A stretch of 64,000 bases of DNA from an uncultured Kiritimatiellota bacterium (GTDB lineage Bacteria > Verrucomicrobiota > Kiritimatiellia > RFP12 > UBA1067), in NCBI GenBank assembly GCA_934675625.1, contig CAKURH010000003.1, positions 4,503 through 68,502 of the forward strand, written 5' to 3'. Positions 1 to 31,035 of this stretch are shown one piece after another. The notes under the pieces are model-generated. The model saw nothing but the letters and a program-made list of their open reading frames with translations. It was not told the origin of the DNA and ran no database searches. A program made the position numbers and the translations under genes. Numbering within the stretch: the stretch's first letter is position 1; the number at the start of each line of letters is the position of its first letter.

Positions 1-6097
<6,097 letters not shown>

Positions 6098-6123
6098 CGC
6101 TCTCTCCATTGTCTGTTCAGCTG

Positions 6124-11835: not shown

Positions 11836-11845
11836 CTTGCTCCTC

Positions 11846-12937
11846 TCATCCTTTCGTCTTGCGTTGCGTCGAGGCCCGAACGACGAGCCGCTCGGGCAGA
11901 AAGAGGCGAACTGGCAGACCGAAGGGTCGTTCGACGCGGTGCAGAAGCCGGTCGAAGACTGTCTGCGCGATCTCGGCATAAGGCTGCTGGATTGTCGTCA
12001 GGGCCATGACCCGGGCAATGTCCATGCCATCGAAGCCGCCGATCATGACGTCTTTGGGAATCGCATATCCAAGCGCCCGCAGCGTCTGCGCGAAGTCCGC
12101 CGCAAGCGCGTCGTTCTGACAGACAAACGCATCCGGGCGCGGACGTCGCTTCATGTAAGCCCGAACCGCCTTCACGTCCGTCGGCTCGGCCCGAAGCACG
12201 TTTCGCGCGTTCGACCAGGCCCGTCCCGACTGGACGACGGCACTGGCGACGCCTCGCACACGCTCCATCTGGTTGGGGAAGGTCCTCGGAAGCATCGCCA
12301 CATGGACGTTTCGCGCGCCTTCCGCGAGGAGATGGCTCGCAAGCGATTCGGCCGCCAGCGCATTGTCGATCGACACGACATCATGCCCGCTTCTGGCCGG
12401 CGGAAGGACGACATCGCTGTCGAGCAGCACGACGGGTATCTTCGCCCGGCGGAAGACGGACACGATGTCCGCGTTCGTCGTGTCGTCTGCCGACAGGAAC
12501 TCGACCGGATGGTAGATCACTCCCGAGACGTGCCGCTTGATGAAGTCGGCCGCGAGCTCGCGGACGTTGTGGCGCAACTGCTTCGGCTCCGCCGCGTCAA
12601 TGTTCACGAACAGGAACGCGCAGTGCGCACGTTGCGCGATCCGAACGAGTTCCAGGGCAATCGGATTGAAATACTCGTAGCGAGAGACTCCCGGCAGAAT
12701 CAGTCCGAACGTCTTCATTTCGGCGCGCTCCGTCACGAAGACGCCCTTCCCCTGACGGCTGCGCACAAGCCCCTCATGCCGAAGCTCGTCCATCGCCTTC
12801 CTCACCGTCGTGCGCGAACAGGCGCAACGGCGGGAGAGCTGCATCTCGCTGGGGACGGCGCGTGACTTCCCGTACTTTCCCCCGAGGATCTCGCCCTTGA
12901 GAAGCGCGTAGACTTCGCTGTGCTTTGTTTCGGTCAT
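11846..12937 (-). CDS. GntR-type winged-HTH regulator fused to a LacI/PBP-type sugar-binding domain
   Basis: Trimmed to MTETKHSEVYALL (ATG 12937, AAGGAG upstream). The N-terminus VPSEMQLSRRCACSRTTVRKAMDELRHEGLV is GntR-like, and the rest resembles a periplasmic-binding-protein fold (IPVVLLD, CQNDALA). Confidence 0.85.
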   Translation of the reverse strand: MTETKHSEVYALLKGEILGGKYGKSRAVPSEMQLSRRCACSRTTVRKAMDELRHEGLVRSRQGKGVFVTERAEMKTFGLILPGVSRYEYFNPIALELVRIAQRAHCAFLFVNIDAAEPKQLRHNVRELAADFIKRHVSGVIYHPVEFLSADDTTNADIVSVFRRAKIPVVLLDSDVVLPPARSGHDVVSIDNALAAESLASHLLAEGARNVHVAMLPRTFPNQMERVRGVASAVVQSGRAWSNARNVLRAEPTDVKAVRAYMKRRPRPDAFVCQNDALAADFAQTLRALGYAIPKDVMIGGFDGMDIARVMALTTIQQPYAEIAQTVFDRLLHRVERPFGLPVRLFLPERLVVRASTQRKTKG

Positions 12938-18474: not shown

Positions 18475-19180
18475 GGCGCATCGTGTAGATGCCGGGGGCC
18501 TGTCCCCGCGCCCAGACGAGCGCCTTCAGCGCGCCGGCGGCGAACGCCGCGCGATCCTGCGCCTTGTGCGTCAGCTCGACGCGCTCAAGGTCGCCCGCAA
18601 ACATGACGGTGTGGTCGCCGACGACCGCGCCGCCGCGCAGCGCGTGAATCGCAATCTCGCCGACGGGACGTTCCCCGATGTCGCCGTGGCGGCCGAAGAC
18701 GAAATCGTCGCCCAGTCCGCGCCCCTGCGCCGCCGCCTTGGCCAGCATGAGCGCCGTGCCCGACGGCGCGTCCTTCTTATGGCGGTGGTGCATTTCCGTC
18801 ACCTCGATGTCGTAGGCGGGCCCCAGCACCGTCGCCGCCCGCTGGACAAGCTCCAGCAGGAGGTTCACGCCGAGCGAATAGTTGCCGCTCTGCACGACCG
18901 GGATCTTCTGCGCGGCGGCATCCACGACCTTCTGCTCGTCGGGCATGAGGCCCGTCGTGCCAATCACATACGGGATTCCCTGCTCGGCCGCCTGCGCGAC
19001 GAAGCCGGGCACGCCCGCGTGATACGAGAAGTCGATGACGCCCTCGGTCTCCTTCGGCCATGTTCGGTCGTAGCCCTCCGCCACGTCGACCTTGGCAACG
19101 ACCTCCAGCCCGGCGTCCTGCGCCAGCTCAACCAGTTTCTTTCCCATGCGCCCGGCGGCGCCGACAAGTGCGATTTTCAT
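18455..19180 (-). CDS. dapB: 4-hydroxy-tetrahydrodipicolinate reductase
   Basis: MKIALVGAAGRMG (NAD(P) fold), EMHHRHKKDAPSGTA signature, full length at 241 aa. Confidence 0.92.
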   Translation of the reverse strand: MKIALVGAAGRMGKKLVELAQDAGLEVVAKVDVAEGYDRTWPKETEGVIDFSYHAGVPGFVAQAAEQGIPYVIGTTGLMPDEQKVVDAAAQKIPVVQSGNYSLGVNLLLELVQRAATVLGPAYDIEVTEMHHRHKKDAPSGTALMLAKAAAQGRGLGDDFVFGRHGDIGERPVGEIAIHALRGGAVVGDHTVMFAGDLERVELTHKAQDRAAFAAGALKALVWARGQAPGIYTMRHVLGFA

Positions 19181-19212
19181 GTGTCTTCTCCCATCTCCGC
19201 TGTTGAGGCCGT

Positions 19213-19221
19213 ATTATAGCA
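19213..19221 (-). promoter_or_regulatory. Extended -10 promoter TGCTATAAT upstream of dapB
   Basis: The minus strand reads TGCTATAAT ~32 nt upstream of ATG 19180, with GGGAGAAG as the SD. Confidence 0.6.
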
Positions 19222-19334
19222 AAATCATCCCCAGCCGTCTTGACGCGGGCTTTCAGGGTTTCCATGCGCCCGTGGGGGGCTGACCACACTTTCCCGCCGA
19301 TTTCACGACGTCCGTCGCCCGCGTTCCCTTCGCA

Positions 19335-19877
19335 TCAGGCCGCTTCAGGGCTTTCGGGAAGAGGCGGCGGGCGGGGCGCAGGAGGCCGAAGAGGTTCGAG
19401 ACGAGCCGAAGCGAATCGTGCCGCTTGGCCGTCGCCGGGGCGCGCGTCGCCGAGAAGTCCGTCCCCGCGCGGAAGCGGAGGCCACGCGCGGCCGCCGATG
19501 CGGCGACCCACGCCCGCGAGCGCGTGGTCGTCCTCGTAAAGCCCGCCGACGTCGCTGTGGACACCAGGAAACAGCGCCTCCTCGACCTGCCCGCCCCGGA
19601 GCGGCACGTAGGCGTAGAAGCACCGCGCCTCGTGTTCGGCGACGGCGTGGCGCGCGAAGCGCACGTTCGCCGGACAGTCCTCCGCGACGGCAAGCCCCGG
19701 CGTCGCGTCCACCGTGTCCCAGAGGCCGAGGTATTCGACCCGCTTCGCCGCCCCGGCGTCAACCGCGTCGCCCGCATTGAGGGGATAGTTGTAGTAGCCG
19801 GGCCAGCGCTCCAGCTGCCCCGCCCGGTACGTCCCGACGAGGACGACCCTCTTCCCTGTCTTCACCTTGAAACTCAT
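19335..19877 (-). pseudogene. Remnant of a DUF2235 (Tle1-like alpha/beta-hydrolase/lipase) gene lacking the nucleophile half
   Basis: Retains YLGLWDTV, HAVAEHEAR-F and FPGVHSDVGGLY, which are C-terminal-half DUF2235 motifs. It has no GxSxG region, the N-terminal 50 aa are unrelated, and the tail is Pro/Arg-rich and low-complexity. Confidence 0.5.
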
Positions 19878-19893
19878 GCCCGTATTATACCAT
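19867..19893. repeat. 27-bp direct repeat copy 1 (TTGAAACTCATGCCCGTATTATACCAT)
   Basis: Identical to 25040..25066. It contains the -10 box plus the first 11 nt of the ORF (ATGAGTTTCAA). Confidence 0.9.
19884..19892 (-). promoter_or_regulatory. Extended -10 promoter TGGTATAAT giving a leaderless transcript
   Basis: TGGTATAAT-ACGGGC-ATG(19877). Only 6 nt separate the -10 from the start codon. Confidence 0.55.
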
Positions 19894-20289
19894 CTTGTCC
19901 GCGCCCCCGCGTCGCGCCAACAACCTCAAGCGCCCAACGCCAGCCTGTCGTGCCGGGCTGGGCCGTCGCCGGGGATAGGCGGGAGGGACGCGCTTGTCGC
20001 GTCCGTTCGCCCCCCTGACTTTACCACAGAGCACACAGAAAGTCGCGAAGGTTTTGCAATGACCTCATGTTTCCCTAAAGCCCTCGGATCCGCTCGGCAA
20101 CCGTCTTCCGGCTGACGCGCGATTCAACAACCGATTTCATGACACCCGCCATCTCCCACATCTGTTTCATTCATCGATCTCACATTTTGTTATGCGCCAC
20201 GCGCCATTTCGGTTTTCCAATCTATAGATGCGGCAATAAATCAGGTTGATTTTTCCCGATGTGAAGACAACTCCGATGATCGGCTTTCT

Positions 20290-20745
20290 TCATTTAGACC
20301 CTGCGTCTTGAGAGGCAAGTGGAAGCAGCTGCAATCCGTAGAGACATCTACCTTTTGTCATGCGCACCGCCATGGCTGTTGGTTCGGGCACGGAAACCAA
20401 GCACGCGGAATTCGTGGTGAAAGATGCTCCCATCGAGCGGAAATCTTTTTTGTACGCCAAGCGGAAACTCACAGCCTCTTGCGTGTTGCGCATCGGTATG
20501 AATGACAGCGAAAGATGCCGGTCACAAACCATGAATTCTGAATCACAAGGCACAGAAACAGCCTCTCCATACCGACTGATCTGAGGATCATGGCCGCCAA
20601 TCGCGTAAAGGTAGCGTCCTCCTGACTTCTTGAATGTGAACACGACATTTGTGCCTGTGGACTCAATGGAATCAAAGAATGACTTTAACGTGGCTTCCGT
20701 GATTTCCGGTTGCTGTACGGCTACGCTTCCACCCTGCGCAAGCAT
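20290..20745 (-). CDS. Hypothetical protein (151 aa), third gene of the low-GC island
   Basis: Track ORF 20290..20994 trimmed to MLAQGGSVAVQQ (ATG 20745, GGAAGGGGA upstream). It overlaps the upstream stop by 25 nt. I recognise no motif. Confidence 0.5.
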   Translation of the reverse strand: MLAQGGSVAVQQPEITEATLKSFFDSIESTGTNVVFTFKKSGGRYLYAIGGHDPQISRYGEAVSVPCDSEFMVCDRHLSLSFIPMRNTQEAVSFRLAYKKDFRSMGASFTTNSACLVSVPEPTAMAVRMTKGRCLYGLQLLPLASQDAGSK

Positions 20746-21743
20746 TCCCCTTCCGTTAACGCTTGCAACAGCCGCTTGCCAAACGTCGTCTTGATTTCGG
20801 ATACAGGCTTCAGAATCTTCGGGCAGCGCAAGACGGCCGCCGCATACCCCTTCGCGTCGTCCCCATCGACGAGATAGGCGAGATAGACGAGTTCGGACAC
20901 TTCCTCCGCCGACAGATGCATCAGCACGGAATTGCCGGCCTGAATGCTTTTCAACCGCTCCATGTGCCGCTCCTTCGGCTCCAAGCCACGCCACGTCAAG
21001 CCCAGAGTTTCGGGAAGCTGATAGTCTACCTGAAAGTCACAGCCTTCGTTCATGCGGAACACGCGATTTGAGAATGCAGCCTCTACCTTGAGTTTCTGCA
21101 TGGCCTGCCGTGACACCATGTTTGTGTAGCCAAGACCAAGAATTCCCGTGAGCGTTTTCTCGCTGGGATGCCATTTGTTCGGCTTTAGTCGAGCCATGTC
21201 CAGTTGAGTCTCTGGCGTCAGCAACATCAAGTGAACGAATTCATCCATGTAAGACTGGTATGGGTCATACGGCGGAAGGTATTTCCAGATCATTCGCCCT
21301 GTCACCCAAACACGCTTTCCCGCCCTCGGATTGCTTCGCGTTCCCTCGTCGAAATAGCAAAAACTCGACGGGGGGGCGATGAGGCCAAAAACATCAAATA
21401 GCGGCGGCAGAGCCTGTGCGCGCCGCGCAGTCTCATAGAGATAGCATCTCCTGTATCCGCCAACGGATACATCGCCCTTCAAGACTTCAACGCAGTATTT
21501 TTCATGCAGTCCAAGTTCTCGTCCCAGAGCGCGAGTGATCAGTGGCAAGTGCCGCTTGTCCTCTTGATGCGACGGCTCATGCATCAGCGCGATTTGCGCC
21601 CCCCTTAGGCAATTCGTGATTTCAGCGACGACAAATTCTTGAATCTCCGTCGAGGCATCGTCAAATCGGAAAGGCACGGCGTTCCCATCTAGGACAAACG
21701 CCAGCAGTCCTGACACGACAAATGCGAATCGAATGCATTTCAT
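20721..21743 (-). CDS. Hypothetical secreted/membrane-anchored protein (340 aa), second gene of the island
   Basis: N-terminal hydrophobic segment MKCIRFAFVVSGLLAFVL. ATGA overlap with the TSP3 gene stop (21740-21743). Codon usage matches the island. No recognisable domain. Confidence 0.6.
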   Translation of the reverse strand: MKCIRFAFVVSGLLAFVLDGNAVPFRFDDASTEIQEFVVAEITNCLRGAQIALMHEPSHQEDKRHLPLITRALGRELGLHEKYCVEVLKGDVSVGGYRRCYLYETARRAQALPPLFDVFGLIAPPSSFCYFDEGTRSNPRAGKRVWVTGRMIWKYLPPYDPYQSYMDEFVHLMLLTPETQLDMARLKPNKWHPSEKTLTGILGLGYTNMVSRQAMQKLKVEAAFSNRVFRMNEGCDFQVDYQLPETLGLTWRGLEPKERHMERLKSIQAGNSVLMHLSAEEVSELVYLAYLVDGDDAKGYAAAVLRCPKILKPVSEIKTTFGKRLLQALTEGECLRRVEA

Positions 21744-24700
21744 GGTTGCTCTCCTTCTTTTACATAGGCCGGATGGACATGATTAATCGGATTGGAACCA
21801 TAGGCTTCCTCATACGAGCAATGGTACCTGTAAGCGGCATTGTAGTTCAAATGGCGTTTGACCGAATATTCCATAAAACCACGGTCTTCAAACCTAATCC
21901 TCAAGGATTCGGCCAATTCCTGATTCACGGCCCTGGCAATCACCGCATCTGCGTTGTCTTCCGCATCTTGCCGTGTCTCGCCCTTCACAATCCATGTTGA
22001 AGTCACAACATTCTGATTCGAGATCGCCTGTTGCGAAACGAAATACTTTAAGCCCTTTATCGTATAGCAGTCCCCTTGTCCGCCTTGAGATGTCGGAACC
22101 TCGCCCCTCACTTGTTTGATGTGAAACTCTTCCTCGGCTCGTACCTTGTCCGCATATTGCCCCGTCCATGTAAAGTTCTGTCCGTCCGGTTCGGTATAGA
22201 TGGAACCTTCCTCAAACTGAAAGGGCTTGAAGACTATTTCACAATACCAATAGTCTTCGCTTGTCGAATGATAGAACTTCGCCTCTCCGCGATGCGTATC
22301 GTTTCCAGTCGGTGGCAACACCAAGGAATGCGCATTTGACTCCGGCCATCCGACAGGACATTTCCTTGAAAGGACAGTTAACCCGTTCTCGCGCAAATCA
22401 AACGCATATTCATGGTGGTATTTGGCGCAATCTCGGTCCGGGAGAACGCCGTACCAATAGATGGGCGATGTCCGCCAAATATGGGTGCCGGTCTTCTCCG
22501 TCGTCACGGTTGTGCCGTGATTGTCATTTACAAGCGTCCCACTTCCAACGGGCCTACAAAGCAATTCAAAGTTTCTGATAGTCAGAGCCGAACCTGTGAC
22601 ACAGGGCTCGACACGGACTGTTGCCGTACGGCTGTCGATCAGCTCCCCATCTTGACACACATCATACGGCATTATCCTGTCTGACCGGACGACGAGTTTG
22701 ACAACATCCAGATAAGCCGCCTTGCTCTCGCCTGAAAAACGGGTGCTCGTGTTGTCGTCCGTGACGAACAGTCCCTTTGGGTCGTCCAGAAAAACGCCGG
22801 ACGTCTGGTCGGTGTCCACCAACAGGAGGCGATAGTCATAATCCGGGTATCCTTCGCCGGAATTTTTGCAAGCCGCCCATCTGAGCTTCACCTCATACCG
22901 CCAGCCAGGCTTAAGCGCAGCCGTCTTCGTCTCGCACTCGCCATACTCTCGGTTCAGGAACACATGCGAACGCGGTAACGGCCCATTCCCAGAGCCCGTC
23001 ACCGGGATGACTGCAAGCGAATACTTCTCGGAACTGCTGCCGCTCGGATCGCCAAACTCCAGACGTACAGGTCTGCAGCTGCCGGGCCTTCCGACGTCCG
23101 ACGCATCGAGAGGATCGCTGGCACCCAGAGCCTCGGCACCGTCCGACACGCCATCTCCGTCGGTATCGGATTGATTCGGGTTCGTCCCCCAGTCGTTTTC
23201 TTCGCCATTCGTCAAGCCATCACCATCGGGGTCGGCATCGGCATCATTGTCAGGGTCTGCGTCCGTGTTGTTGTCCACGGTCGGGTCATACCCCGACTCA
23301 TCTTCCCAGCCATCCGTCAGCCCGTCACCATCCGTATCAGGCTGTCGCGGATCTGTGCCGAGCAACAGCTCAAAGCCGTCATTCAAGCCATCATAATCCG
23401 TATCAGAACGAAACGGGTCTGTTCTGCGACTGATTTCCGCGCCGTCCTTCAGCCCATCGCCGTCTGTGTCGGGGTTGGTCGGGCTTGTCCCGTACACGTT
23501 CACTTCCTGACCATCCGAGAGCCCGTCCCCATCCGTGTCGGCACGGAGCGGATCCGACCCGTGCCCCAGGCGGTACTCGACCGTCGTCCCCGGCAGGATC
23601 GGCCCGCGCTCGGCGAAGTCCCACGTCAGGTTGTAGAGCCCGTCCGGCGTGACGATGCGCCGGACCTGCACGCCGACGACGGCATCCGATCCGTCAAGCC
23701 AGACGTCCGACGCAAGGTAGCTCACGCGCACGACGGAACCAGTCCCGCCGGGGACGATGACCTGATAGGTCATCCTGCGGTCGTCGGACGTCCCTCGCAG
23801 CCTCACGTTGCGGTATTCGACGACGAAGCAGCCGTTGCTCTCGACGATCCCCGTCCGCATGCACGACGAGGCGTCGCCGTCGACCAGCGCCGTGCTGCAC
23901 CAGTAGGGCGCAACCAGGATGTCGCCCATGCTGTAGGTCCCCCTGTCCAGCGGCGTCGCGAGTTCGGGGAAGACAAGAGCAACGTTCGATCCGGGCGCAT
24001 CCAGGTACATAACCCCGTTGTCGAAGCACACCGCCTTCGACATCAGGCTGCCAAGGACCGTCAGGCCGTCAGGCAGCGAAGCGATCGCTAACGCCCCCCA
24101 GTAGCTGTGCAGACCCTCTCCGTATGAGGTTCCGTAGACCGTCGCCCAGCCCGACGTGTCGTACCACTCGAAAGCGTCCGTCCTGACGATGCATCCCGTC
24201 TCCACGCCGTCCGCGAGCCCGTCGCCGTCGGTGTCTGCGCCCAGGGGGTCTGTCCCCAGGGCAACCTCATCGCCGTCGCCCAGCCCGTCCCCGTCCGTGT
24301 CGGGGTTCGCGGGGCCTGTCCCCAGCGTCCACGCCTCATAGGCGTCCGAGAGGCCGTCGCCGTCCGAGTCGTCCTGCGTGGCGAGCCGGAAGAACGCCGC
24401 GCGTTCCATCGCGTTCGTCTGGAAGCTGTCAATGCCGATCTCGACAGCCGCGGGGGACTGCGCGCCGGACACGTCGACCTGCGCGAGGCGCGTCCAGCCG
24501 CCCGATGCCAGCTGCCAGTGCCCAAAGACGTCGAGACGGCCGTTGGGCAGGGAGAGGCCGTCCGGCCACGCCACCCCCAGCGTCACCGTGTCAGTTCCCC
24601 TCTCGATTCCATAGAAACAGGGGTTTGTCACCGAAGACAATGTGAGGTTGCTGTCGCTTAATGCGGAGTTGTTGGAGGCGGGGAGGCGCGGAGGGTCTTT

Positions 24701-25021
24701 GACAGGATTTACAGGATTTGAGGCGTTTGGCGTATCCGTCTCGGCAATCCTGTCAATCTTGTCAATCCCGTCTAAAAAACCACCCGCCGCTTCGGCGCAC
24801 CGTTCCTTGTACGTCCGCGTCACCGAGCCCTCCATCGTCGCAAAGGCCATGAAGCCGCCGAGGACGAAGACCGTCGGCCAACCAAGCCGCCGGACCGCCG
24901 CGCGCACACGGGCGGAACAGCGCGACAGGCCAAGCGCCAGCGCGGCAAGGGCGACACCGCCCAAGCCAAGGCAACAGCCCCACAGCACGACCGAGTCGAA
25001 AGCCGCTCGATCCATCGTCAC
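21740..25021 (-). CDS. Membrane-anchored thrombospondin type-3 repeat protein with NIDO-like insert and ~450-aa C-terminal domain of unknown function
   Basis: Two N-terminal TM helices (aa 10-32 and 48-62). D-x-D-x-D-G-x-x-D-x-x-E Ca-binding repeats lie at aa 217-274 and 489-640. The insert carries ILVAPYW...VVEYRNV (NIDO-like). GTG start at 25021, with an alternative ATG at 25015. Confidence 0.85.
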   Translation of the reverse strand: MTMDRAAFDSVVLWGCCLGLGGVALAALALGLSRCSARVRAAVRRLGWPTVFVLGGFMAFATMEGSVTRTYKERCAEAAGGFLDGIDKIDRIAETDTPNASNPVNPVKDPPRLPASNNSALSDSNLTLSSVTNPCFYGIERGTDTVTLGVAWPDGLSLPNGRLDVFGHWQLASGGWTRLAQVDVSGAQSPAAVEIGIDSFQTNAMERAAFFRLATQDDSDGDGLSDAYEAWTLGTGPANPDTDGDGLGDGDEVALGTDPLGADTDGDGLADGVETGCIVRTDAFEWYDTSGWATVYGTSYGEGLHSYWGALAIASLPDGLTVLGSLMSKAVCFDNGVMYLDAPGSNVALVFPELATPLDRGTYSMGDILVAPYWCSTALVDGDASSCMRTGIVESNGCFVVEYRNVRLRGTSDDRRMTYQVIVPGGTGSVVRVSYLASDVWLDGSDAVVGVQVRRIVTPDGLYNLTWDFAERGPILPGTTVEYRLGHGSDPLRADTDGDGLSDGQEVNVYGTSPTNPDTDGDGLKDGAEISRRTDPFRSDTDYDGLNDGFELLLGTDPRQPDTDGDGLTDGWEDESGYDPTVDNNTDADPDNDADADPDGDGLTNGEENDWGTNPNQSDTDGDGVSDGAEALGASDPLDASDVGRPGSCRPVRLEFGDPSGSSSEKYSLAVIPVTGSGNGPLPRSHVFLNREYGECETKTAALKPGWRYEVKLRWAACKNSGEGYPDYDYRLLLVDTDQTSGVFLDDPKGLFVTDDNTSTRFSGESKAAYLDVVKLVVRSDRIMPYDVCQDGELIDSRTATVRVEPCVTGSALTIRNFELLCRPVGSGTLVNDNHGTTVTTEKTGTHIWRTSPIYWYGVLPDRDCAKYHHEYAFDLRENGLTVLSRKCPVGWPESNAHSLVLPPTGNDTHRGEAKFYHSTSEDYWYCEIVFKPFQFEEGSIYTEPDGQNFTWTGQYADKVRAEEEFHIKQVRGEVPTSQGGQGDCYTIKGLKYFVSQQAISNQNVVTSTWIVKGETRQDAEDNADAVIARAVNQELAESLRIRFEDRGFMEYSVKRHLNYNAAYRYHCSYEEAYGSNPINHVHPAYVKEGEQP
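23102..23557 (-). repeat. Coding TSP3 repeat block 2 (~7 units)
   Basis: DTDGDGLSDGQE, DTDGDGLKDGAE, DTDYDGLNDGFE, DTDGDGLTDGWE, DPDGDGLTNGEE, DTDGDGVSDGAE. Confidence 0.85.
24200..24373 (-). repeat. Coding TSP3 repeat block 1 (3 units)
   Basis: DDSDGDGLSDAYE / DTDGDGLGDGDE / DTDGDGLADGVE. Confidence 0.85.
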
Positions 25022-25039
25022 GGATCAATCACGGGAACA

Positions 25040-25066
25040 TTGAAACTCATGCCCGTATTATACCAT
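25040..25066. repeat. 27-bp direct repeat copy 2 (contains TGGTATAAT -10 box and ATGAGTTTCAA)
   Basis: Identical to 19867..19893. The flanking bases differ on both sides. Confidence 0.9.
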
Positions 25067-25106
25067 ACTCATGTCCGTCGATTCTCTAAGGCCCGATGGA
25101 TGACAA

Positions 25107-28100
25107 TCACAAGTCCACGGCCTTGGACGGCCTGATCTCATCGGCGAAAAGGGAAACGAAGCCTGTCGCAAACGCATGGCAGCAACTTGCCTGCGGCGCG
25201 TCATGTTCCCACAGTGTTCCGGTGCGGTCTGCCATGTCCGCATAGTAGGCAAGGGCTTCCTTTCGGGCGAGTTCGGGCATTCCCGCACGCGCAAGGCAGA
25301 GGAAGCGCAATTGCATGCCGGGGAAGAGGCCGGCCTTCTTCAGAGAGCCGCGTTCGCCCCGCACCAGACGCCCCCAAAGTTCGGCGTCGCGGACAGAGTC
25401 CGCCGTACCCGTGAAGAACGCATAGTACTGACACGTCTCGGTCGCTTCAGGACGCACGGCAAGTGCGCCATCCTTCCCGCGCACCGCATGGTCACGGAAC
25501 TGGACGCCATCAAATGCCTGTGCCCGGACAGCGGAACGGATCGCATCCGCACGACGGACGCAACACTCCCATCCGTACAGTCGCCCGACCGCATCCAATG
25601 CGGCGGCATAGAGCATGTTCGCCGGATAGTTCACGTCCTGCACATAGCCGTTTGACGCATCCCAACCGACGAATACCCATGACGGAAGCTTTTCAAGAAG
25701 TCCATCTGCGTTGACATATCCATCAAACCACTTCAACAGCTCCCTCACGCGTCCCTCCAGCAGCTTCGCCGTCTCGCGATCTCCGGTTCGGCGCACATAG
25801 TCCTCGATTTCAAGGAGGAACCACAGCGCATACGTCGGAATGTAGAGCCCATCCGTATGATCCGACGGATAGCACATCGCCACCATGCCCTTCGGAAGAT
25901 GCGGAAATCCCTTCGCAAGCGCATAGTCGCGAAGGAACGCACGCTCTACCGACGCATTGCCTGCAAGCAACTGCAGACTTGGGCCCGAAAAATAGGAATC
26001 TCCCAGCCAGCCGGCGCGTTCGCGGCTCGGGCAGTCCATTGGCACGTCCGTTGCGCACTGCGCAAGCGTCCGGGCGGCCGCCGCCAAGACCTTGGCGGCC
26101 ACGGGATCCGCCCCCACATAGACGTTGTTGAAAGCCTCGGCATTCCGATAGCGACGCACGACAGGCGCCTTCCACGTCGCCTTGCCGGAGAGCATCGCCA
26201 AGCGGGCAAACTTGAACGTCTGAGGCTCGAAGAACTCCAGCACATATCGCCCCGGGCGCCTGATGTCCCATATTGCGCCGGCCGCGATTTCGATGCGTAG
26301 CGGGTTCACGTCTCCATCAGGCGTACGCAACTCGTCCACGGCCGCCATGAACCGCCCCGGCTCCGTACACGCCAGCTCGACCTGAAGGAATCCAGTGGTG
26401 TTATGCTCTCCGGCATAGAGCTTCGCCGGAACCTTTCGCCCTGCCACGCCAGGCTTGGCCCTACGCCATTTTGCCAGTTCGTGCCACACGTTCACGTCGC
26501 ATTCCTCTGCCTTATACCCGCAGAAGACAGGCGGCGCGACATTCTCGAAGCATCGCGTCCTGGGCAAAGGCGTCGATTCGTCGCAGACAATGTCGTAGGC
26601 ATCGACCTCGACGAACGACCTGTCGAGACTGAAGTCACAAAGCGGCACCTCCCGTGCGAGAAAGCGCGGCGCGGTGACAGTTTCCAATTCCCGCGACGGA
26701 GCCGGCGCACCGCCGATCAGGTACGCCTCCGAGAAGCCTCTCTGGAAACTGGCTCGCGGCGTCTTGACGATGCGTTCGGATGCCCGTGCCGTCCAGTTTG
26801 TTCCGCCAGTCGCGGAAAGGACTCGCCCGTTTTGCACGACTTCCGCCGCGAGAAACGGAGACTGGTCCATGTACACGAAGTTGTTGCACCGATACGCGTT
26901 CACTTCGACGCGCAGTCGGTTTCTCCCCGCATTCAGCCGAACCGGAAGAGCATCGACACGCGCAAGGCCAGTCGGCGCGCGCGCAGGGCCCGCCGAGACG
27001 AATGCGCCGTTCAACTCGGCCTTGTAGCAGGACGCGGCCGCAATCCGCAACTCTGCCAGGCCATCCTCAGCCGTCAGTTCCGTCTCGAATGCGAACGTCT
27101 CGTTCATCGTGTCGCCCGCGCCCTTTGGCCACACCGCCTGTGCAGCAAGGAACAGGTCAGGCGCATTGAATTTCTTGTGGTTCAGGAACTCCCAGACGCG
27201 ATCCAGCCACGTGTAGCTGCCCGTACCCGGTGCGGCGGCGTTCATGAAGCAGTGATCCCTCGTCGCCAACGTATGCAAATCGCCCTGCACCCCCATGCGA
27301 CGCAACTGTTCCCAGCACTTGACCGAATTCATCGCCGCCCATCCGTCCGCATCGCCGTGCAGGAACAGCATCGGACAGGTCGAAAGGTCGAAGGAGAACT
27401 CCGGCGCGAGACGCGCCGCATCGTCATTGCCGCCCGTGCGATTCGGCTCGTCAAGACCGTCCGTCAGTGCATAGGCCGGATACAGCGCAATGCCCCACTG
27501 CACATTGCACGGAATAAGATCTGTCTCATCGACCGGCCAATATGACTTGCGCCGAGAACTTGTCGCCCCCATGATCGTGAGATGTCCACCGGCGGACGCA
27601 CCCATGATCCCAATGCGGTTCGGATCGAGGTGACGCGCCTCCGCTTCGCGGCGCACGACGCGGACTGCACGCTGAAGATCCTGCCAGGCGCTCGTATGCT
27701 TCGCGAGGCCTGTCGGACGCGGTGTGCGGTATTTGAGCGTCACGACCGTCATGCCCTTCTCGTTCAGGTAGCGTCGCGCCGACGTTACGCCATCCCAGGA
27801 ATCCGGACGGTTATCGAAGTAGGCTCCGCCGGAATAGATGATCTGGATGCCCTTGGTGCGAGGCGTCTTCGGAAGATGCCATTCGAGATATGGAACGCAC
27901 TGGTTCGTCTGTGCAGCCGGCATCTTGCCTTCTGGCCAAAGGGGCATCCGTTCGTAGCCACCCCGATCGGCATCATCCGGGAAACGCGCGGCAAGGCCGA
28001 CCTCATCGCCGAGCCGTCCATCGAAGTTCATCTGGCGGATGAACTCAAGCGCGCGGTCAAACCAGTGATCCCATGCCGTGCCGTCATCGCCACGGTTCAT

Positions 28101-29009
28101 GTCGCCGTGAAACCCATGCCAGCGATCCGCGAAAAGATGCAGCTCGGCAGGTATCTTCATCCGGCGGAGCTGACGGTATATCTGCGTTGAACCCAAAGGG
28201 GAGAAATCGTCCGCCCCCCCGTGGAACAGGCACATCGGGCAGGTCTTGCCGTCAAACGCAAGCTCTTTCACGAGCGCGACGTCGGGCGCATCTCCCTCGC
28301 GGGCGTTCGGCACGCCCTCGCCGTCTGTCAGCACGTATGCCGCAGCCTGCGGCACGGCGAAGAGCAGGTTGCACGGCAAGGCATCGAGTTCGTCGACCGG
28401 GGCATACGCCGCCGTCTCCGACGATGTGGCCAGAAGGAGGACGAGCTTGGCGCCGGCCGATATTCCCGTGGCGCCGATCTTCTCCGGGCTGAAGCCCCAC
28501 TTCGACGCATGCGCCCGCATGAACCGTATGGCCCTCTGCGCATCTTCCCAGCCGGACTGGTGTATTGCAAGCCCCTTCGGACGAGGTGTACGGTACGTCA
28601 GGTTCGCGACCGTCACGCCCGCGCGGACGAATCTGTCAATGGCCGGCTGCAGGCGTTCCGCGTCACAGCAGGACGAGAAGCCGCCGCCCGAGACCATGAG
28701 CACGGCAAGGTCGGTTCGATTGGACGGATTCGGCGCGTACCAGTCGATGTACGGTCGCCGAAAGTCCTCCGCGCGAAACATCTGGGCACGGGTCTCTTCC
28801 GCCTGCGCGGCGATCTGATGCGGCTGCTCGTCCGGCATCTTGCCTTCGGGCCAGATGTATTCGCGCAGGACTGGCCTTGCCGAAGGCGTCAGCGGCCCGA
28901 ACGACGCCCGGTCATCCGGCGAACCCCATGTCCCAAACGCCCAAGACGATGCCGCCGCCACAAGGCAGACGAGTGACACGGCACACTTTCGCACGCATTC
29001 AGCGTACAT
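25107..29009 (-). CDS. Secreted tri-domain enzyme: two tandem alpha/beta-hydrolase (carbohydrate-esterase-like) domains fused to a GH78 alpha-L-rhamnosidase domain
   Basis: Start at MYAECVRKCAVSLVCLVAAASSWA (ATG 29009, GGAGAGGA upstream). Esterase motifs are SGGGF/GISAGA and SGGAY/GASAGG, each followed by H(G)GADD or HGDADG. The GH78 hallmark DCPSRERAGWLGD is present. Confidence 0.85.
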   Translation of the reverse strand: MYAECVRKCAVSLVCLVAAASSWAFGTWGSPDDRASFGPLTPSARPVLREYIWPEGKMPDEQPHQIAAQAEETRAQMFRAEDFRRPYIDWYAPNPSNRTDLAVLMVSGGGFSSCCDAERLQPAIDRFVRAGVTVANLTYRTPRPKGLAIHQSGWEDAQRAIRFMRAHASKWGFSPEKIGATGISAGAKLVLLLATSSETAAYAPVDELDALPCNLLFAVPQAAAYVLTDGEGVPNAREGDAPDVALVKELAFDGKTCPMCLFHGGADDFSPLGSTQIYRQLRRMKIPAELHLFADRWHGFHGDMNRGDDGTAWDHWFDRALEFIRQMNFDGRLGDEVGLAARFPDDADRGGYERMPLWPEGKMPAAQTNQCVPYLEWHLPKTPRTKGIQIIYSGGAYFDNRPDSWDGVTSARRYLNEKGMTVVTLKYRTPRPTGLAKHTSAWQDLQRAVRVVRREAEARHLDPNRIGIMGASAGGHLTIMGATSSRRKSYWPVDETDLIPCNVQWGIALYPAYALTDGLDEPNRTGGNDDAARLAPEFSFDLSTCPMLFLHGDADGWAAMNSVKCWEQLRRMGVQGDLHTLATRDHCFMNAAAPGTGSYTWLDRVWEFLNHKKFNAPDLFLAAQAVWPKGAGDTMNETFAFETELTAEDGLAELRIAAASCYKAELNGAFVSAGPARAPTGLARVDALPVRLNAGRNRLRVEVNAYRCNNFVYMDQSPFLAAEVVQNGRVLSATGGTNWTARASERIVKTPRASFQRGFSEAYLIGGAPAPSRELETVTAPRFLAREVPLCDFSLDRSFVEVDAYDIVCDESTPLPRTRCFENVAPPVFCGYKAEECDVNVWHELAKWRRAKPGVAGRKVPAKLYAGEHNTTGFLQVELACTEPGRFMAAVDELRTPDGDVNPLRIEIAAGAIWDIRRPGRYVLEFFEPQTFKFARLAMLSGKATWKAPVVRRYRNAEAFNNVYVGADPVAAKVLAAAARTLAQCATDVPMDCPSRERAGWLGDSYFSGPSLQLLAGNASVERAFLRDYALAKGFPHLPKGMVAMCYPSDHTDGLYIPTYALWFLLEIEDYVRRTGDRETAKLLEGRVRELLKWFDGYVNADGLLEKLPSWVFVGWDASNGYVQDVNYPANMLYAAALDAVGRLYGWECCVRRADAIRSAVRAQAFDGVQFRDHAVRGKDGALAVRPEATETCQYYAFFTGTADSVRDAELWGRLVRGERGSLKKAGLFPGMQLRFLCLARAGMPELARKEALAYYADMADRTGTLWEHDAPQASCCHAFATGFVSLFADEIRPSKAVDL

Positions 29010-31035
29010 ACGTGATCCTCTCCCCATCTGCTTCAATGAATGGCACGCCCTCCTCCGGCATTCCGGCCTTCACGCCGAGCCCCTCAATCCACCAGCCATA
29101 GGGCGCCAGGCGATGCCCGTCAATCGTCCGAGGCACATCGCCAAGGTTCACGAGGAAGCGCACGCCACCGTATGTCGCCACAACGGTTCCGTCGTCGGAC
29201 GGCGTGGCCGGATCAATGCCACGCGCGAACAGGGGTGATCTGTCGTGTACAAACTCCGTGACACGGCCACCAACAGTCCGTGAAAGCACACGGGACTGTA
29301 GGGCGTGCAACCAGGCATACCAGCGCCGAATACGCTTATCCTTCGTCAGCTCATCTGCCTTGTACGCCACGACAATGTTGTAGCCGAGCGCAAGAACCCA
29401 CGCGAGGACACGCTCGTTCCTGGTGAAACCCGCGAGATCATGATGGTAGAAAAGGAGCTTGTCTCGGAAGAGGCGCTGGGCCACAGGTTCGAGAACCCAC
29501 GTGTCAGCGGGGAAACGCTTTTCCTTGTGCAGTTTCCGTCCGACCATGTCCTCAAGCGGAACAGTCCCCCAGGCGCAGCCGGTCAGTCCGAGTTCTGAAT
29601 CCGCCACCATGTCAAAGCCGTCCTCCGTGAAGAGCGGCATGTGGCGGCTGTCCTCCTCTACAATGGAAATCATACCCTCCTCATGCGCCGTGACGGACGG
29701 GGAATGCGGGCTGAAGTCGCGAAACCACGGCAGGGAACCGCACTGATCCTGAAACAGGATGTCAGAGCCATAGGTCTCGCGCGCTTCACGCCGGGTGGCG
29801 CGGTTCGCCGCCTGCACGACCGGATGCCAGTACGTGATGTTGTAGCCCTTGTGCGGCCCGTACCTGAGCGTAATCGGGCTGCCGTCGCGCTTTCTGGCGA
29901 TCGGCTCCATGCCGGCCTTCTTGAACACCTCCGACTTAAAGGGTTCGGAACCCCACCAGCATGGATTCGTGTACGGCATGAACAGTCCGCCACGGGCATG
30001 GATGGCCGCCACCATGTTCTTGAAGTCGTCGGAGCTGCCAAACGTCTTCCGGGGCGGGAAGAAATCGGGATATGCGTTGTCGAAGCCATGCGGCATGTAG
30101 TCGTGGATATGGACGAGCGTCGGCATCGGCAAGTCCTCGGCAAGTGAGGTAATCCGCTTCGCGTCGGCAGCGAGGACGAGCAACAGCGGAGAGGCGGCAA
30201 GCTTGCGCAGAAACGCCGTCCCGTCACGCGGCGGCAGTTTCGACGACAGCGAACGGCCGAGGCCATTTTCCTTCAGGTACGCCGCGAGGGACGAATCGAC
30301 GGTTCCGCCCTCGACGATCCGCACCACTGGCGTCTCGACCGATTCGCCGGGCTTCAGCCAGTACGCCGATGCATGCGAATAGTATCCGCCACGGCTATCG
30401 CCAGCCACAGTCGCCGATCCCGGAACGAACGGATGCGGATTCTTCCACGGCGCAAAATACCCGCGACGCTGGACGCCATAGACCTGGATGGACGCGCCGG
30501 ATTTCGTCTCCAGCCGCGCCCAGTCCGCAAAGAGCGGCGGGTAGGGGACGGAGTAGTTGCACTTGGACGTGAAGAATTTCTCGTTGAGCGCCATGCCCGT
30601 CGTCTCGTTGCCGCGACCCGGGTAGACGAACCTCGCCACATCGGCTGGACGAAAGCGCAGGTTCGCAGGGAAGTGGAATTCCTCGACGATGCCCTCCTTC
30701 GCCGTCAAACGGGCTTTCATCGTCAAGGATCCGTCGCGCGGACGCACCGTCGTTACCGTGACATCCAAGACGGGAGACGACCATTTCGAGACAACCGTAT
30801 CGCCGCGTCGCGTCTCTGTGAATCGTCCGCCGATGCGGTCCTCCCGTTCGACCTGCGCCGCAGAAAGCCTATTCGTCTCGGCGAACTTCACGCGCCACAG
30901 GCCGTGTTCGCCGGATTCAAGATAGGTCTTTCCATGGACATCACGGGCCACGATACGCCCCTTCTCGCACCGCACCTCGCCCTTGGCGACCAAAAGCGTG
31001 CAAGCAACCGCCGAAAACGCAAGCAAAGCTCTCAT
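28999..31035 (-). CDS. Secreted hypothetical protein, putative glycanase-like (distantly resembles the 54.5-61.9 kb paralog family)
   Basis: Trimmed to MRALLAFSAVACTLLVAKG (ATG 31035, GGGAGGGG upstream). The HGFDNAYPDFFPPRKTFGSS...MPYTNP and LFTEDGFDMVADSELG segments parallel GGHDGPFPDLFPADERFGG...HLNQHN and FGGYSSECGCDHFAAELDN. Confidence 0.6.
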   Translation of the reverse strand: MRALLAFSAVACTLLVAKGEVRCEKGRIVARDVHGKTYLESGEHGLWRVKFAETNRLSAAQVEREDRIGGRFTETRRGDTVVSKWSSPVLDVTVTTVRPRDGSLTMKARLTAKEGIVEEFHFPANLRFRPADVARFVYPGRGNETTGMALNEKFFTSKCNYSVPYPPLFADWARLETKSGASIQVYGVQRRGYFAPWKNPHPFVPGSATVAGDSRGGYYSHASAYWLKPGESVETPVVRIVEGGTVDSSLAAYLKENGLGRSLSSKLPPRDGTAFLRKLAASPLLLVLAADAKRITSLAEDLPMPTLVHIHDYMPHGFDNAYPDFFPPRKTFGSSDDFKNMVAAIHARGGLFMPYTNPCWWGSEPFKSEVFKKAGMEPIARKRDGSPITLRYGPHKGYNITYWHPVVQAANRATRREARETYGSDILFQDQCGSLPWFRDFSPHSPSVTAHEEGMISIVEEDSRHMPLFTEDGFDMVADSELGLTGCAWGTVPLEDMVGRKLHKEKRFPADTWVLEPVAQRLFRDKLLFYHHDLAGFTRNERVLAWVLALGYNIVVAYKADELTKDKRIRRWYAWLHALQSRVLSRTVGGRVTEFVHDRSPLFARGIDPATPSDDGTVVATYGGVRFLVNLGDVPRTIDGHRLAPYGWWIEGLGVKAGMPEEGVPFIEADGERITYVR

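Follow-up and report, generated by a model that had tools for sequence, protein, structure and literature searches.

What does a giant calcium-repeat protein with an uncatalogued C-terminus do, together with the smaller gene that overlaps its stop codon? The question is raised by a locus in a 64,000-nucleotide stretch of DNA from an uncultured Kiritimatiellota bacterium (contig CAKURH010000003.1 of assembly GCA_934675625.1, positions 4,503 to 68,502; hereafter, the window), which encodes on its minus strand a 1093-amino-acid (aa) protein (21740..25021; GTG start, with an in-frame ATG two codons downstream), a 340-aa protein (p340; 20721..21743) and a 151-aa open reading frame (ORF) (p151; 20290..20745 when counted from its ATG, the open frame reaching upstream to a GTG at 20994). 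ORF calling returned these three genes, and the ATGA at 21740-21743 in which the large gene stops and the 340-aa gene starts (that is, translational coupling), just as described in an earlier account made from the letters without database searches (the sequence-only reading). That account had taken the three genes as one cassette on an acquired island and had likened their layout to polymorphic toxin–immunity systems. Kiritimatiellia and related lineages are common in the gut communities of humans and ruminants, hardly any have been cultured and, to our knowledge, nothing is known of how they compete.

We suggest that the locus probably belongs to a new family of Sec-dependent polymorphic toxin–immunity systems found in Kiritimatiellia, Lentisphaerae and Verrucomicrobiota. 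The 1093-aa protein is read as the effector and p340 as its neutralising partner because the locus has the features that define polymorphic toxin systems, namely a conserved scaffold with a highly variable C-terminus (12 clusters of C-terminal tails behind one constant domain, here termed the pre-module, at 66 loci), a tail-specific gene directly downstream, and cassette recombination accompanied by orphan tail and partner modules. The likeness to a toxin–immunity layout thus held, orphan and truncated partner genes lying downstream, as did the picture of a large protein of the envelope whose C-terminal module varies and is followed by a cognate gene.

Architecture of the 1093-aa protein

The 1093-aa protein is modular. 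It begins with a leader (aa 1-63; 24833..25021; all features of the protein lie on the minus strand) composed of a strongly hydrophobic helix (aa ~10-33), an Arg-rich loop (SRCSARVRAAVRRLG) and a short second hydrophobic segment (aa 49-63), so that, of the two N-terminal transmembrane helices proposed by the sequence-only reading, the first is clear and the second marginal (Kyte-Doolittle 1.61 over 15 residues). The leader is predicted to form a membrane hairpin that would place the rest of the protein outside the cytoplasm, the bulk facing the periplasm because of the positive-inside rule. Its two-segment pattern recurs in many homologues with different tail types, and its first 40 aa are 78% identical to those at L014, one of the related loci (L numbers) compared below. 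In many Kiritimatiellia and Lentisphaerae members (L010, L033, L035-L037, L039, L042, L047, L049, L060, L063 and L064) it takes the form of a hydrophobic helix, a basic loop (often HEHGIxP..R), a short helix and then G[AS]TK, and could be a module devoted to export or anchoring. In Verrucomicrobiota the members have ordinary signal peptides and another N-domain (FLRWYGH..RTYFIQVSDPNDH).

Behind the leader come a Pro-rich linker and small conserved domain (aa 64-215; 24377..24832; 91-94% identical in L001-L003 and 72% in L014, with no Pfam match), a first block of thrombospondin type-3 (TSP3) repeats (aa 216-285; 24167..24376; DNA repeat families D1/D2), a mid domain (aa 286-490; 23552..24166; 98% identical in L001-L004, 67% in L010 and 48% in L014, again with no Pfam match, at E ≤ 5) and a second TSP3 block (aa 491-645; 23087..23551), both repeat blocks being recognised by Pfam. 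The ten or so TSP3 repeats seen by eye correspond to nine stretches of TSP3_bac (PF18884, whose unit is the calcium-binding repeat Dx(D/N)xDGxxDxxE), with E = 9e-45 and 150.5 bits against a cut-off of 25. No further Pfam family was found in the protein, and SpvB/TcdB, PrsW and MuF domains were among those not found by the Pfam search. The supposed NIDO likeness of the insert found no support, as Pfam gave no NIDO match at E ≤ 1 for the whole protein and none at E ≤ 5 for the isolated mid domain and four homologues scanned whole.

The C-terminal ~450 aa had been described as an orphan region. This holds in that neither Pfam nor NCBIfam has a family over aa 641-1093, but the region is not one domain: an alignment of C-terminal homologues splits it into a pre-module (aa 646-778; 22688..23086), marked by the motifs FGDPSGSxSEKY, YGECETKTA and PDYDY and ending at a GxGKxAxxxV junction, and a tail of ~315 aa (tail A). 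The pre-module is common to 19/19 homologues irrespective of their tail; tail A occurs in only eight of these. In the AlphaFold2 (AF2) model the pre-module is a confident β-sandwich (predicted local distance difference test (pLDDT) ~80-93), followed by a second β domain and a partly low-confidence α/β end (pLDDT < 50 for the last ~50 aa of tail A). A Foldseek search of the model of aa 640-1093 against the PDB and BFVD, a check that had been proposed for this region, returned only generic Ig/MG/FN3-like β-sandwiches with template modelling (TM) scores ≤ 0.2, and sequence profiles built from the tail A and p340 alignments matched nothing in the PDB even at E ≤ 10. Pfam and NCBIfam likewise hold none of the pre-module, tail A, p340 and p151 families, and PHROGs and PADLOC scans of the three window proteins gave no match. 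The findings that, according to the sequence-only reading, would refute it did not appear: no part resembles a housekeeping family, and each of the small ORFs has a conserved family of its own.

Tail A consists of a β-rich part (aa 779-950; 22172..22687; delimited by profile search, alignment and AF2 strands) and a C-terminal α/β part (aa 951-1093; 21743..22171; delimited by profile search and alignment), the latter being the candidate catalytic or toxic domain. A tail A profile hidden Markov model (HMM) run against 1.84 billion representative proteins matched 124 clusters, with the tail C-terminal in every member inspected, in proteins of 330-1368 aa. Those inspected start with plain signal peptides, TSP3 repeats occur in only 7/64 scanned, and many matches span only the last ~140 residues. 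Across 20 diverse tails, about 20 residues are invariant, mostly polar: D796, N832, W856, G858, C865 and Y872 in the β-rich part, and Q955, Y956, E963, E964, H967, Q970, G980, G981, E1035, E1051, K1055, C1068, Y1070 and H1083 in the α/β part. We regard this set as enzyme-like on sequence grounds, and its invariant Cys pair may form a disulfide. A reading of E964/H967 as the ExxH of a LAS-peptidase-like site was dropped, as no invariant upstream His/Asp pair suits that family. A degenerate DNA pattern for the motif GYNAAxxYHCTY located eight further independent tail-A loci in metagenome-assembled genomes of Kiritimatiellia, Verrucomicrobiota and Lentisphaerae.

Tails and their partners across genomes

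Scanning a genome collection for the pre-module gave 68 loci in Kiritimatiellia, Lentisphaeraceae, Akkermansiaceae, Luteolibacter, Haloferula, Opitutia and Chthoniobacterales (all sequences being metagenome assemblies), and several genomes hold more than one such locus, with different tails. A complete tail and a downstream ORF were available for 66 loci, counting those fetched earlier; their tails fall into 12 clusters and their downstream ORFs into 21. Agreement between the two clusterings, expressed as an adjusted Rand index, is 0.78, which is only a rough measure because start-codon choice was approximate in the clustering, and particular pairings are strict (tail 0 stands with partner 0 in 19/19 loci and tail 4 with partner 4 in 4/4). 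Relative to the stop codon, the start of the same-strand downstream ORF lies between -60 and +91 nt at all complete loci, and 60 of the 66 partners carry a hydrophobic, signal-like N-terminal segment. Tail types thus have partners of their own, and the partners are exported.

Ten alternative tails were compared with Pfam, NCBIfam and the PDB; a single family, DUF6973 (E = 2e-13), was matched above threshold, with weak matches to Abhydrolase_6 and Reprolysin. Among the homologues that share the pre-module but not tail A, one carries HEIGH with a weak Reprolysin match, another GxSxG with Abhydrolase_6 just below threshold, and two match DUF6345 weakly. Clustering of the neighbouring ORFs of the 66 loci showed no conserved secretion or transporter gene; what recurs are the partner genes and one small upstream ORF (6 loci). 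Three pre-module loci (L038, L046 and L055) sit in bins labelled Faecalibacterium, Eggerthellaceae and Eubacteriales; because their contigs are short (2-9 kb) and their sequences are like those of the Planctomycetota–Verrucomicrobiota–Chlamydiota (PVC) group, this is likely to be mis-binning rather than transfer to Firmicutes or Actinobacteria.

The partner of tail A

The 340-aa protein had been called signal-anchored, which hydropathy narrows to a signal-peptide-like N-terminus. It has 25 homologues, and most members of the family are ~320-345 aa long and end a few residues past a conserved GGM (most often GGML), so the product of the window has a normal length. Its AF2 model is confident (pLDDT 84.6, predicted TM score 0.83) and found no neighbour in the PDB by Foldseek (best E = 1.4). 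A homologous large protein precedes the p340 homologue in L001-L004, and at 8/8 independent loci an ORF whose N-terminus is signal-peptide-like directly follows tail A (277-331 aa; 1076 aa in L019), with an overlap of 4 nt at 6/8. Five of the eight partners are clear p340 relatives; the other three match weakly (E 0.0035-0.25), mostly sharing LSxxE(A/V)SE. We consider p340 the putative periplasmic immunity protein of tail A.

A separate observation concerns a ~200-aa family with the motif IIPNY.R, which stands as an ORF of its own upstream of a p340 homologue in L008 (9355-9957) and is fused to the C-terminus of the p340 homologues P0019 and P0024. These two proteins are a further instance in which domains of partner families are fused at the conserved GGML end.

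Mosaic recombination and leftover partners

Identity between the window and L001-L004 is 91-94% over the N-terminus (aa 1-215) and 98% over the mid domain (aa 286-490), and then falls to 72% in the second TSP3 block, 49% in the pre-module, 54% in tail A and 48% in p340. Sliding identity to L002, which also has tail A, is 88-100% over aa 1-520 and 42-55% thereafter, declining within the second TSP3 block from 92-100% to 60-78%. A sharper break is seen between tail types: L002 (tail A) and L014 (which carries another tail, tail B) are 80-92% identical through the second TSP3 block and the pre-module and 15-25% identical right past GEGKVAxxYVL, that is, identity collapses at the junction between pre-module and tail. 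The two tail-B loci L014 and L010 are 15-30% identical in the N-terminus and mostly 75-95% in pre-module and tail. At the DNA level (blastn), the window matches L002 at 96% over 25004..23523, at ~70% or not alignably over 23523-20318, and at 92-95% over 20157-19295.

Composition, too, breaks inside the large gene. GC content at third codon positions (GC3) is 0.78-0.89 over aa 1-490, close to that of the flanking dapB (0.88), and from the second TSP3 block, where the fall in identity also begins, it is 0.645 (second block), 0.68 (pre-module), 0.55 (tail A), 0.64 (p340) and 0.54 (p151); overall GC is 0.52-0.58 at 20-24 kb and 0.65-0.70 in the flanks. On the basis of these breaks in identity and GC3, the 3′ part of the large gene and the partner genes appear to have been exchanged recently, whereas the 5′ half looks native, which points to a recent replacement of tail and partner genes by recombination. 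The acquired island of the sequence-only reading accordingly seems to be confined to the 3′ part (GC3 0.54-0.68) and not to extend to the segment encoding aa 1-490.

The third gene of the supposed cassette is read as a leftover of such exchange. Two p340 homologues, P0001 (99% identical, 484 aa) and P0002 (91%, 487 aa), read through into p151 sequence, and the window differs from the contig encoding P0001 by a single change at the junction, GGGG in place of GGGGG. With the G5 run of contig L005 (99% identical) in place of the G4 run of the window (20747-20750, minus strand), p340 and p151 form one 484-aa protein. The 25-nt overlap between p340 and p151 is therefore present but arises from a one-base change in a homopolymer, which could be real or an assembly error, and does not mark a designed pair. 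Stand-alone p151 homologues are 157-197 aa long (most ~170-197), with signal-peptide N-termini, and in most of them a lipobox-type Cys (as in LIACGS) stands close to the cleavage position. As the window copy begins just where the family signal peptide would end, it has by itself neither signal peptide nor lipobox and hence no export signal, and the protein that had looked cytoplasmic belongs to a family of ~170-aa lipoproteins, of which it is an N-terminally truncated copy. The read-through homologues and this family membership lead us to reject the idea that the third ORF is a translationally coupled cytoplasmic gene in its own right. The copy in L001-L004 carries a different frameshift.

The family has a home elsewhere. 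In L010 and L014, p151-family lipoproteins lie directly downstream of large TSP3 proteins that share the leader, mid domain, repeats and pre-module and end in a ~320-aa tail B with HEAHH. We therefore read the window p151, from its sequence relationships, as a truncated orphan copy of the tail-B lipoprotein partner; where sister contigs encode it fused to p340, it might still undergo export and act as a second immunity domain. Of the three-gene cassette, what stands is the unit of effector and 340-aa partner, the third ORF being a remnant of another unit's partner. The relation is reciprocal across loci: a truncated p151 follows p340 at tail-A loci, and N-terminal fragments of p340 follow full-length p151 at tail-B loci.

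Other loci display further remnants and arrays. In L006 (10001-11988), two p340 genes stand in tandem without an effector upstream; L018 (2072-3978) has two tandem partner paralogues after tail A, and L019 (511-3741) a single 1076-aa ORF of two to three tandem p340-like units. L007 (9971-10738) holds the deletion remnant of an effector–partner pair, a chimera in which part of tail A (GDCFTVKGLKYFIS) continues in frame into residues 83-334 (the C-terminal 250 aa) of a p340 homologue. N-truncated pre-module-and-tail genes with partners also lie downstream of full-length genes; L027 has two in succession, each with its own partner, and in L025 four partner-like genes of two or more families form an array that includes a homologue of the HEIGH-tail partner of L027. 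The TSP3 scaffold gene of L025 (232-3852) is called as two ORFs (583 and 610 aa), which suggests a frameshift or an assembly error in the repeat region.

A model for the locus

Assuming that the locus is indeed a toxin–immunity unit, the 1093-aa protein would be exported via Sec and held in the inner membrane by its N-terminal hydrophobic hairpin, from which a calcium-stiffened TSP3 stalk, the mid domain and the constant β-sandwich pre-module would lead to the exchangeable tail A at the tip. Tail A is probably a hydrolase acting in the cell envelope, where it may be toxic, and the tip would be transferred to another cell. The coupled p340, exported in its turn, would bind and neutralise tail A in the periplasm of the producer and in kin cells. 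The p151 ORF would be the partner left over from tail B (which resembles an HExxH metallopeptidase), a lipoprotein gene kept when recombination at the pre-module junction replaced tail and partner; in sister strains, p151 is fused to p340 and would be exported with it. The envelope is the most plausible site of action of the effectors because nearly all partners are exported proteins or lipoproteins and because lipase-like and metallopeptidase-like motifs occur among the tails. The trafficking features, only a hydrophobic leader for the window protein and plain signal peptides for the verrucomicrobial members, fit only the default Sec-dependent class of such toxins.

Several points weigh against this model. 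No two-partner secretion (TPS), PAAR/VgrG, LXG/WXG, Rhs or HINT signature was found with Pfam, nor a conserved secretion gene among the 66 loci, and an inner-membrane hairpin would tether the protein to its producer and leave the crossing of the outer membrane by the tail unexplained. The second hydrophobic segment is marginal, the mature partner (~315 aa) is large for an immunity protein, 3/8 tail-A partners match the p340 profile weakly, most enzymatic assignments of the alternative tails lie below curated thresholds, and metagenome assemblies are the source of every sequence. As no match of known function was found for tail A or p340, the term toxin is taken from genomic logic, as are the toxic activity, binding and protection proposed for members of the family.

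The most serious alternative, although we consider it unlikely, is an enzyme of the envelope or surface that has an exported helper of its own and no part in antagonism. The scaffold would display interchangeable hydrolases for substrate degradation or envelope remodelling by a polysaccharide-degrading bacterium, and each partner would serve its own tail as chaperone, inhibitor or anchor, protecting the producer alone while export takes place. Esterase-, rhamnosidase- and glycoside-hydrolase-type neighbours, hydrolase-like motifs in the tails, the failure to find delivery machinery and a hairpin leader that would keep the protein on its producer all agree with such an enzyme, and conserved adjacency of effector and partner suits an enzyme–inhibitor pair equally well. 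A private helper, however, would not be expected to occur as partners without an effector (L006), as tandem paralogues (L018) or in arrays of several families (L025). Truncated pre-module-and-tail genes with partners downstream of full-length genes, the sharp recombination junction, the jointly foreign composition of tail and partner genes, and several loci with different tails in one genome argue in the same direction, and we consequently prefer the toxin–immunity interpretation.

A polymorphic TSP3 adhesin, in which tail and partner are heterotypic binders that define compatibility groups without toxicity, seems improbable to us. TSP3 proteins do take part in myxobacterial recognition and cohesion (PMC6372800, PMC12045341), polymorphic tails with matched partners would suit such a role, and NCBIfam gave sub-threshold matches to CglD (NF033765; 93 bits against a cut-off of 400) and MtsD (NF047639; 38 bits against 800). 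Those matches span the repeat region only and lie far under the cut-offs, however; the invariant acidic, His and Lys residues of tail A form the kind of set expected at a catalytic site, GxSxG or HExxH motifs occur in other tails, and the partners are soluble exported proteins or lipoproteins rather than surface receptors with obvious anchors. A phage-derived receptor-binding protein swapped as a cassette with a downstream assembly chaperone is hardly credible, for although a variable C-terminus with a small cognate downstream gene also suits phage tail fibres, restriction–modification genes lie nearby in L001 and Foldseek found weak Ig/FN3-like matches among viral models (best E = 5.5e-05, TM 0.15), those matches are generic β-sandwiches of very low TM, none of the three proteins matches PHROGs, the flanks contain no phage genes, the partners have signal peptides or lipoboxes, and the effector has a membrane leader.

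Relation to known systems

Toxin–immunity systems of this kind are known; what is new here is the scaffold, the junction module, the host clade and the majority of tails and partners. Sec-exported polymorphic toxins with lineage-specific constant N-terminal domains, such as MafB, have been described (PMC3482391, Zhang et al. 2012), and among the systems compared MafB/MafI of Neisseria shares with the present locus a Sec-type signal (here a putative one), a constant lineage-restricted N-terminus, a hypervariable C-terminal domain, a tail-specific gene directly downstream, extra orphan cassettes and several loci per genome. It differs in that the window protein has no MAFB-N/DUF1020, its scaffold being hairpin, TSP3 repeats and a new β-sandwich pre-module; in addition, the partners here are exported and not mostly cytoplasmic, the host phyla are others, and tail A and p340 are uncatalogued.

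With Rhs and CdiA–CdiI systems the locus has in common a sharp junction between constant and variable parts (here GxGKxAxxxV), a cognate gene downstream, displaced orphan modules of tail and partner, and a foreign composition of the exchanged segment. The junction motifs of those systems are VENN or PxxxxDPxGL, and their YD repeats, TPS domain, filamentous-haemagglutinin-type (FHA) repeats, PAAR/VgrG association and adjoining transporter gene were all not found here. Effectors of the type VI secretion system (T6SS) that belong to the periplasm-acting kind act in the cell envelope, and the corresponding pairs (Tle/Tli, Tae/Tai and Tge/Tgi) resemble the locus in that exported or lipoprotein partners imply an envelope target, several alternative tails are lipase- or peptidase-like, and the island includes a Tle1-like (DUF2235) gene in L001 and a fragment of one in the window. 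In contrast to those pairs, no T6SS marker is fused or adjacent, the effector is far larger and has its own membrane leader, and the tails have no established family membership. The myxobacterial proteins CglD, MtsD and TraB are alike in having bacterial TSP3 calcium-binding repeats in large envelope proteins, but the similarity is confined to the repeats, and they are not described with swappable C-terminal modules and cognate downstream genes.

In the literature searched, TSP3-scaffolded polymorphic toxins are not described and no polymorphic toxin work on Kiritimatiellia appeared; among publications that might link TSP3, Kiritimatiellia or the domains of unknown function named above to polymorphic toxins, only the myxobacterial TraAB work and the 2012 survey were relevant, and the latter (PMC3482391) does not mention thrombospondin or TSP repeats. 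We tentatively entertain the broader possibility, in which we place less confidence than in the reading of the locus itself, that gut and environmental PVC bacteria, including Akkermansiaceae, share an undescribed antagonism system. It would combine the leader, the TSP3 stalk and the pre-module with at least a dozen new envelope-targeting toxin folds, matching new exported immunity folds, and a contact-dependent delivery unrelated to the type V, type VI and type VII secretion systems.

If the toxin–immunity interpretation is correct, the family is a large recombining arsenal, with at least 12 tail types, several per genome, on an uncatalogued scaffold and junction domain. It would then supply many new candidate envelope-targeting enzymes and inhibitor folds, p340 being an example of a confident model without a PDB neighbour, and would raise the question of how a TSP3-stalked protein anchored in the inner membrane delivers its tip. 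The three pre-module motifs offer a handle for mining such loci in metagenomes.

Genomic setting of the locus

About 30 nt upstream of the 1093-aa gene lies a promoter-like element with an extended -10 TGGTATAAT (25037..25066, minus strand; a consensus match only). The same segment is one copy of a 30-nt direct repeat whose other copy (19864-19893; 97% identical) lies at the start of a chimeric Tle1-like ORF; on the minus strand the repeat reads ATGGTATAATACGGGCATGAGTTTCAA(G/T)GT. A related element, CCGTATTATA, lies upstream of dapB (19209-19228).

The chimeric ORF (180 aa; about 19335..19877, minus strand; defined by Pfam and by blastn against L002) marks the downstream edge of the island. 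It covers only positions 171-271 of the 287 of the T6SS_Tle1-like_cat profile (PF09994, DUF2235; E = 6.6e-09, Pfam), so that the catalytic domain is incomplete (the C-terminal third only), and its first ~46 aa are similar to the beginning of an ORF that L002 has twice (5918-6184 and 11841-12146). DNA methylase and BsaWI-like restriction genes lie between these two points in L002 and are missing from the window; the chimera marks a deletion of the restriction–modification genes that L002 has.

A 93-nt tRNA-Arg(ACG) called by ARAGORN within the 1093-aa gene (24064-24156, minus strand) is very probably a false positive because a search of 19000-25400 with Rfam matched neither tRNAs nor any other RNA family at E ≤ 0.1. 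The genomic context of the cassette differs among the window, L002 and L014. In the window, one flank holds housekeeping genes (dapB and phosphomannomutase-like, PHP and carbamoyltransferase genes), and the upstream neighbour (25107-29036, minus strand) encodes a 1309-aa protein in which two BD-FAE/esterase-type α/β-hydrolase regions are combined with a bacterial rhamnosidase six-hairpin domain, an unusual fusion unrelated to the cassette.

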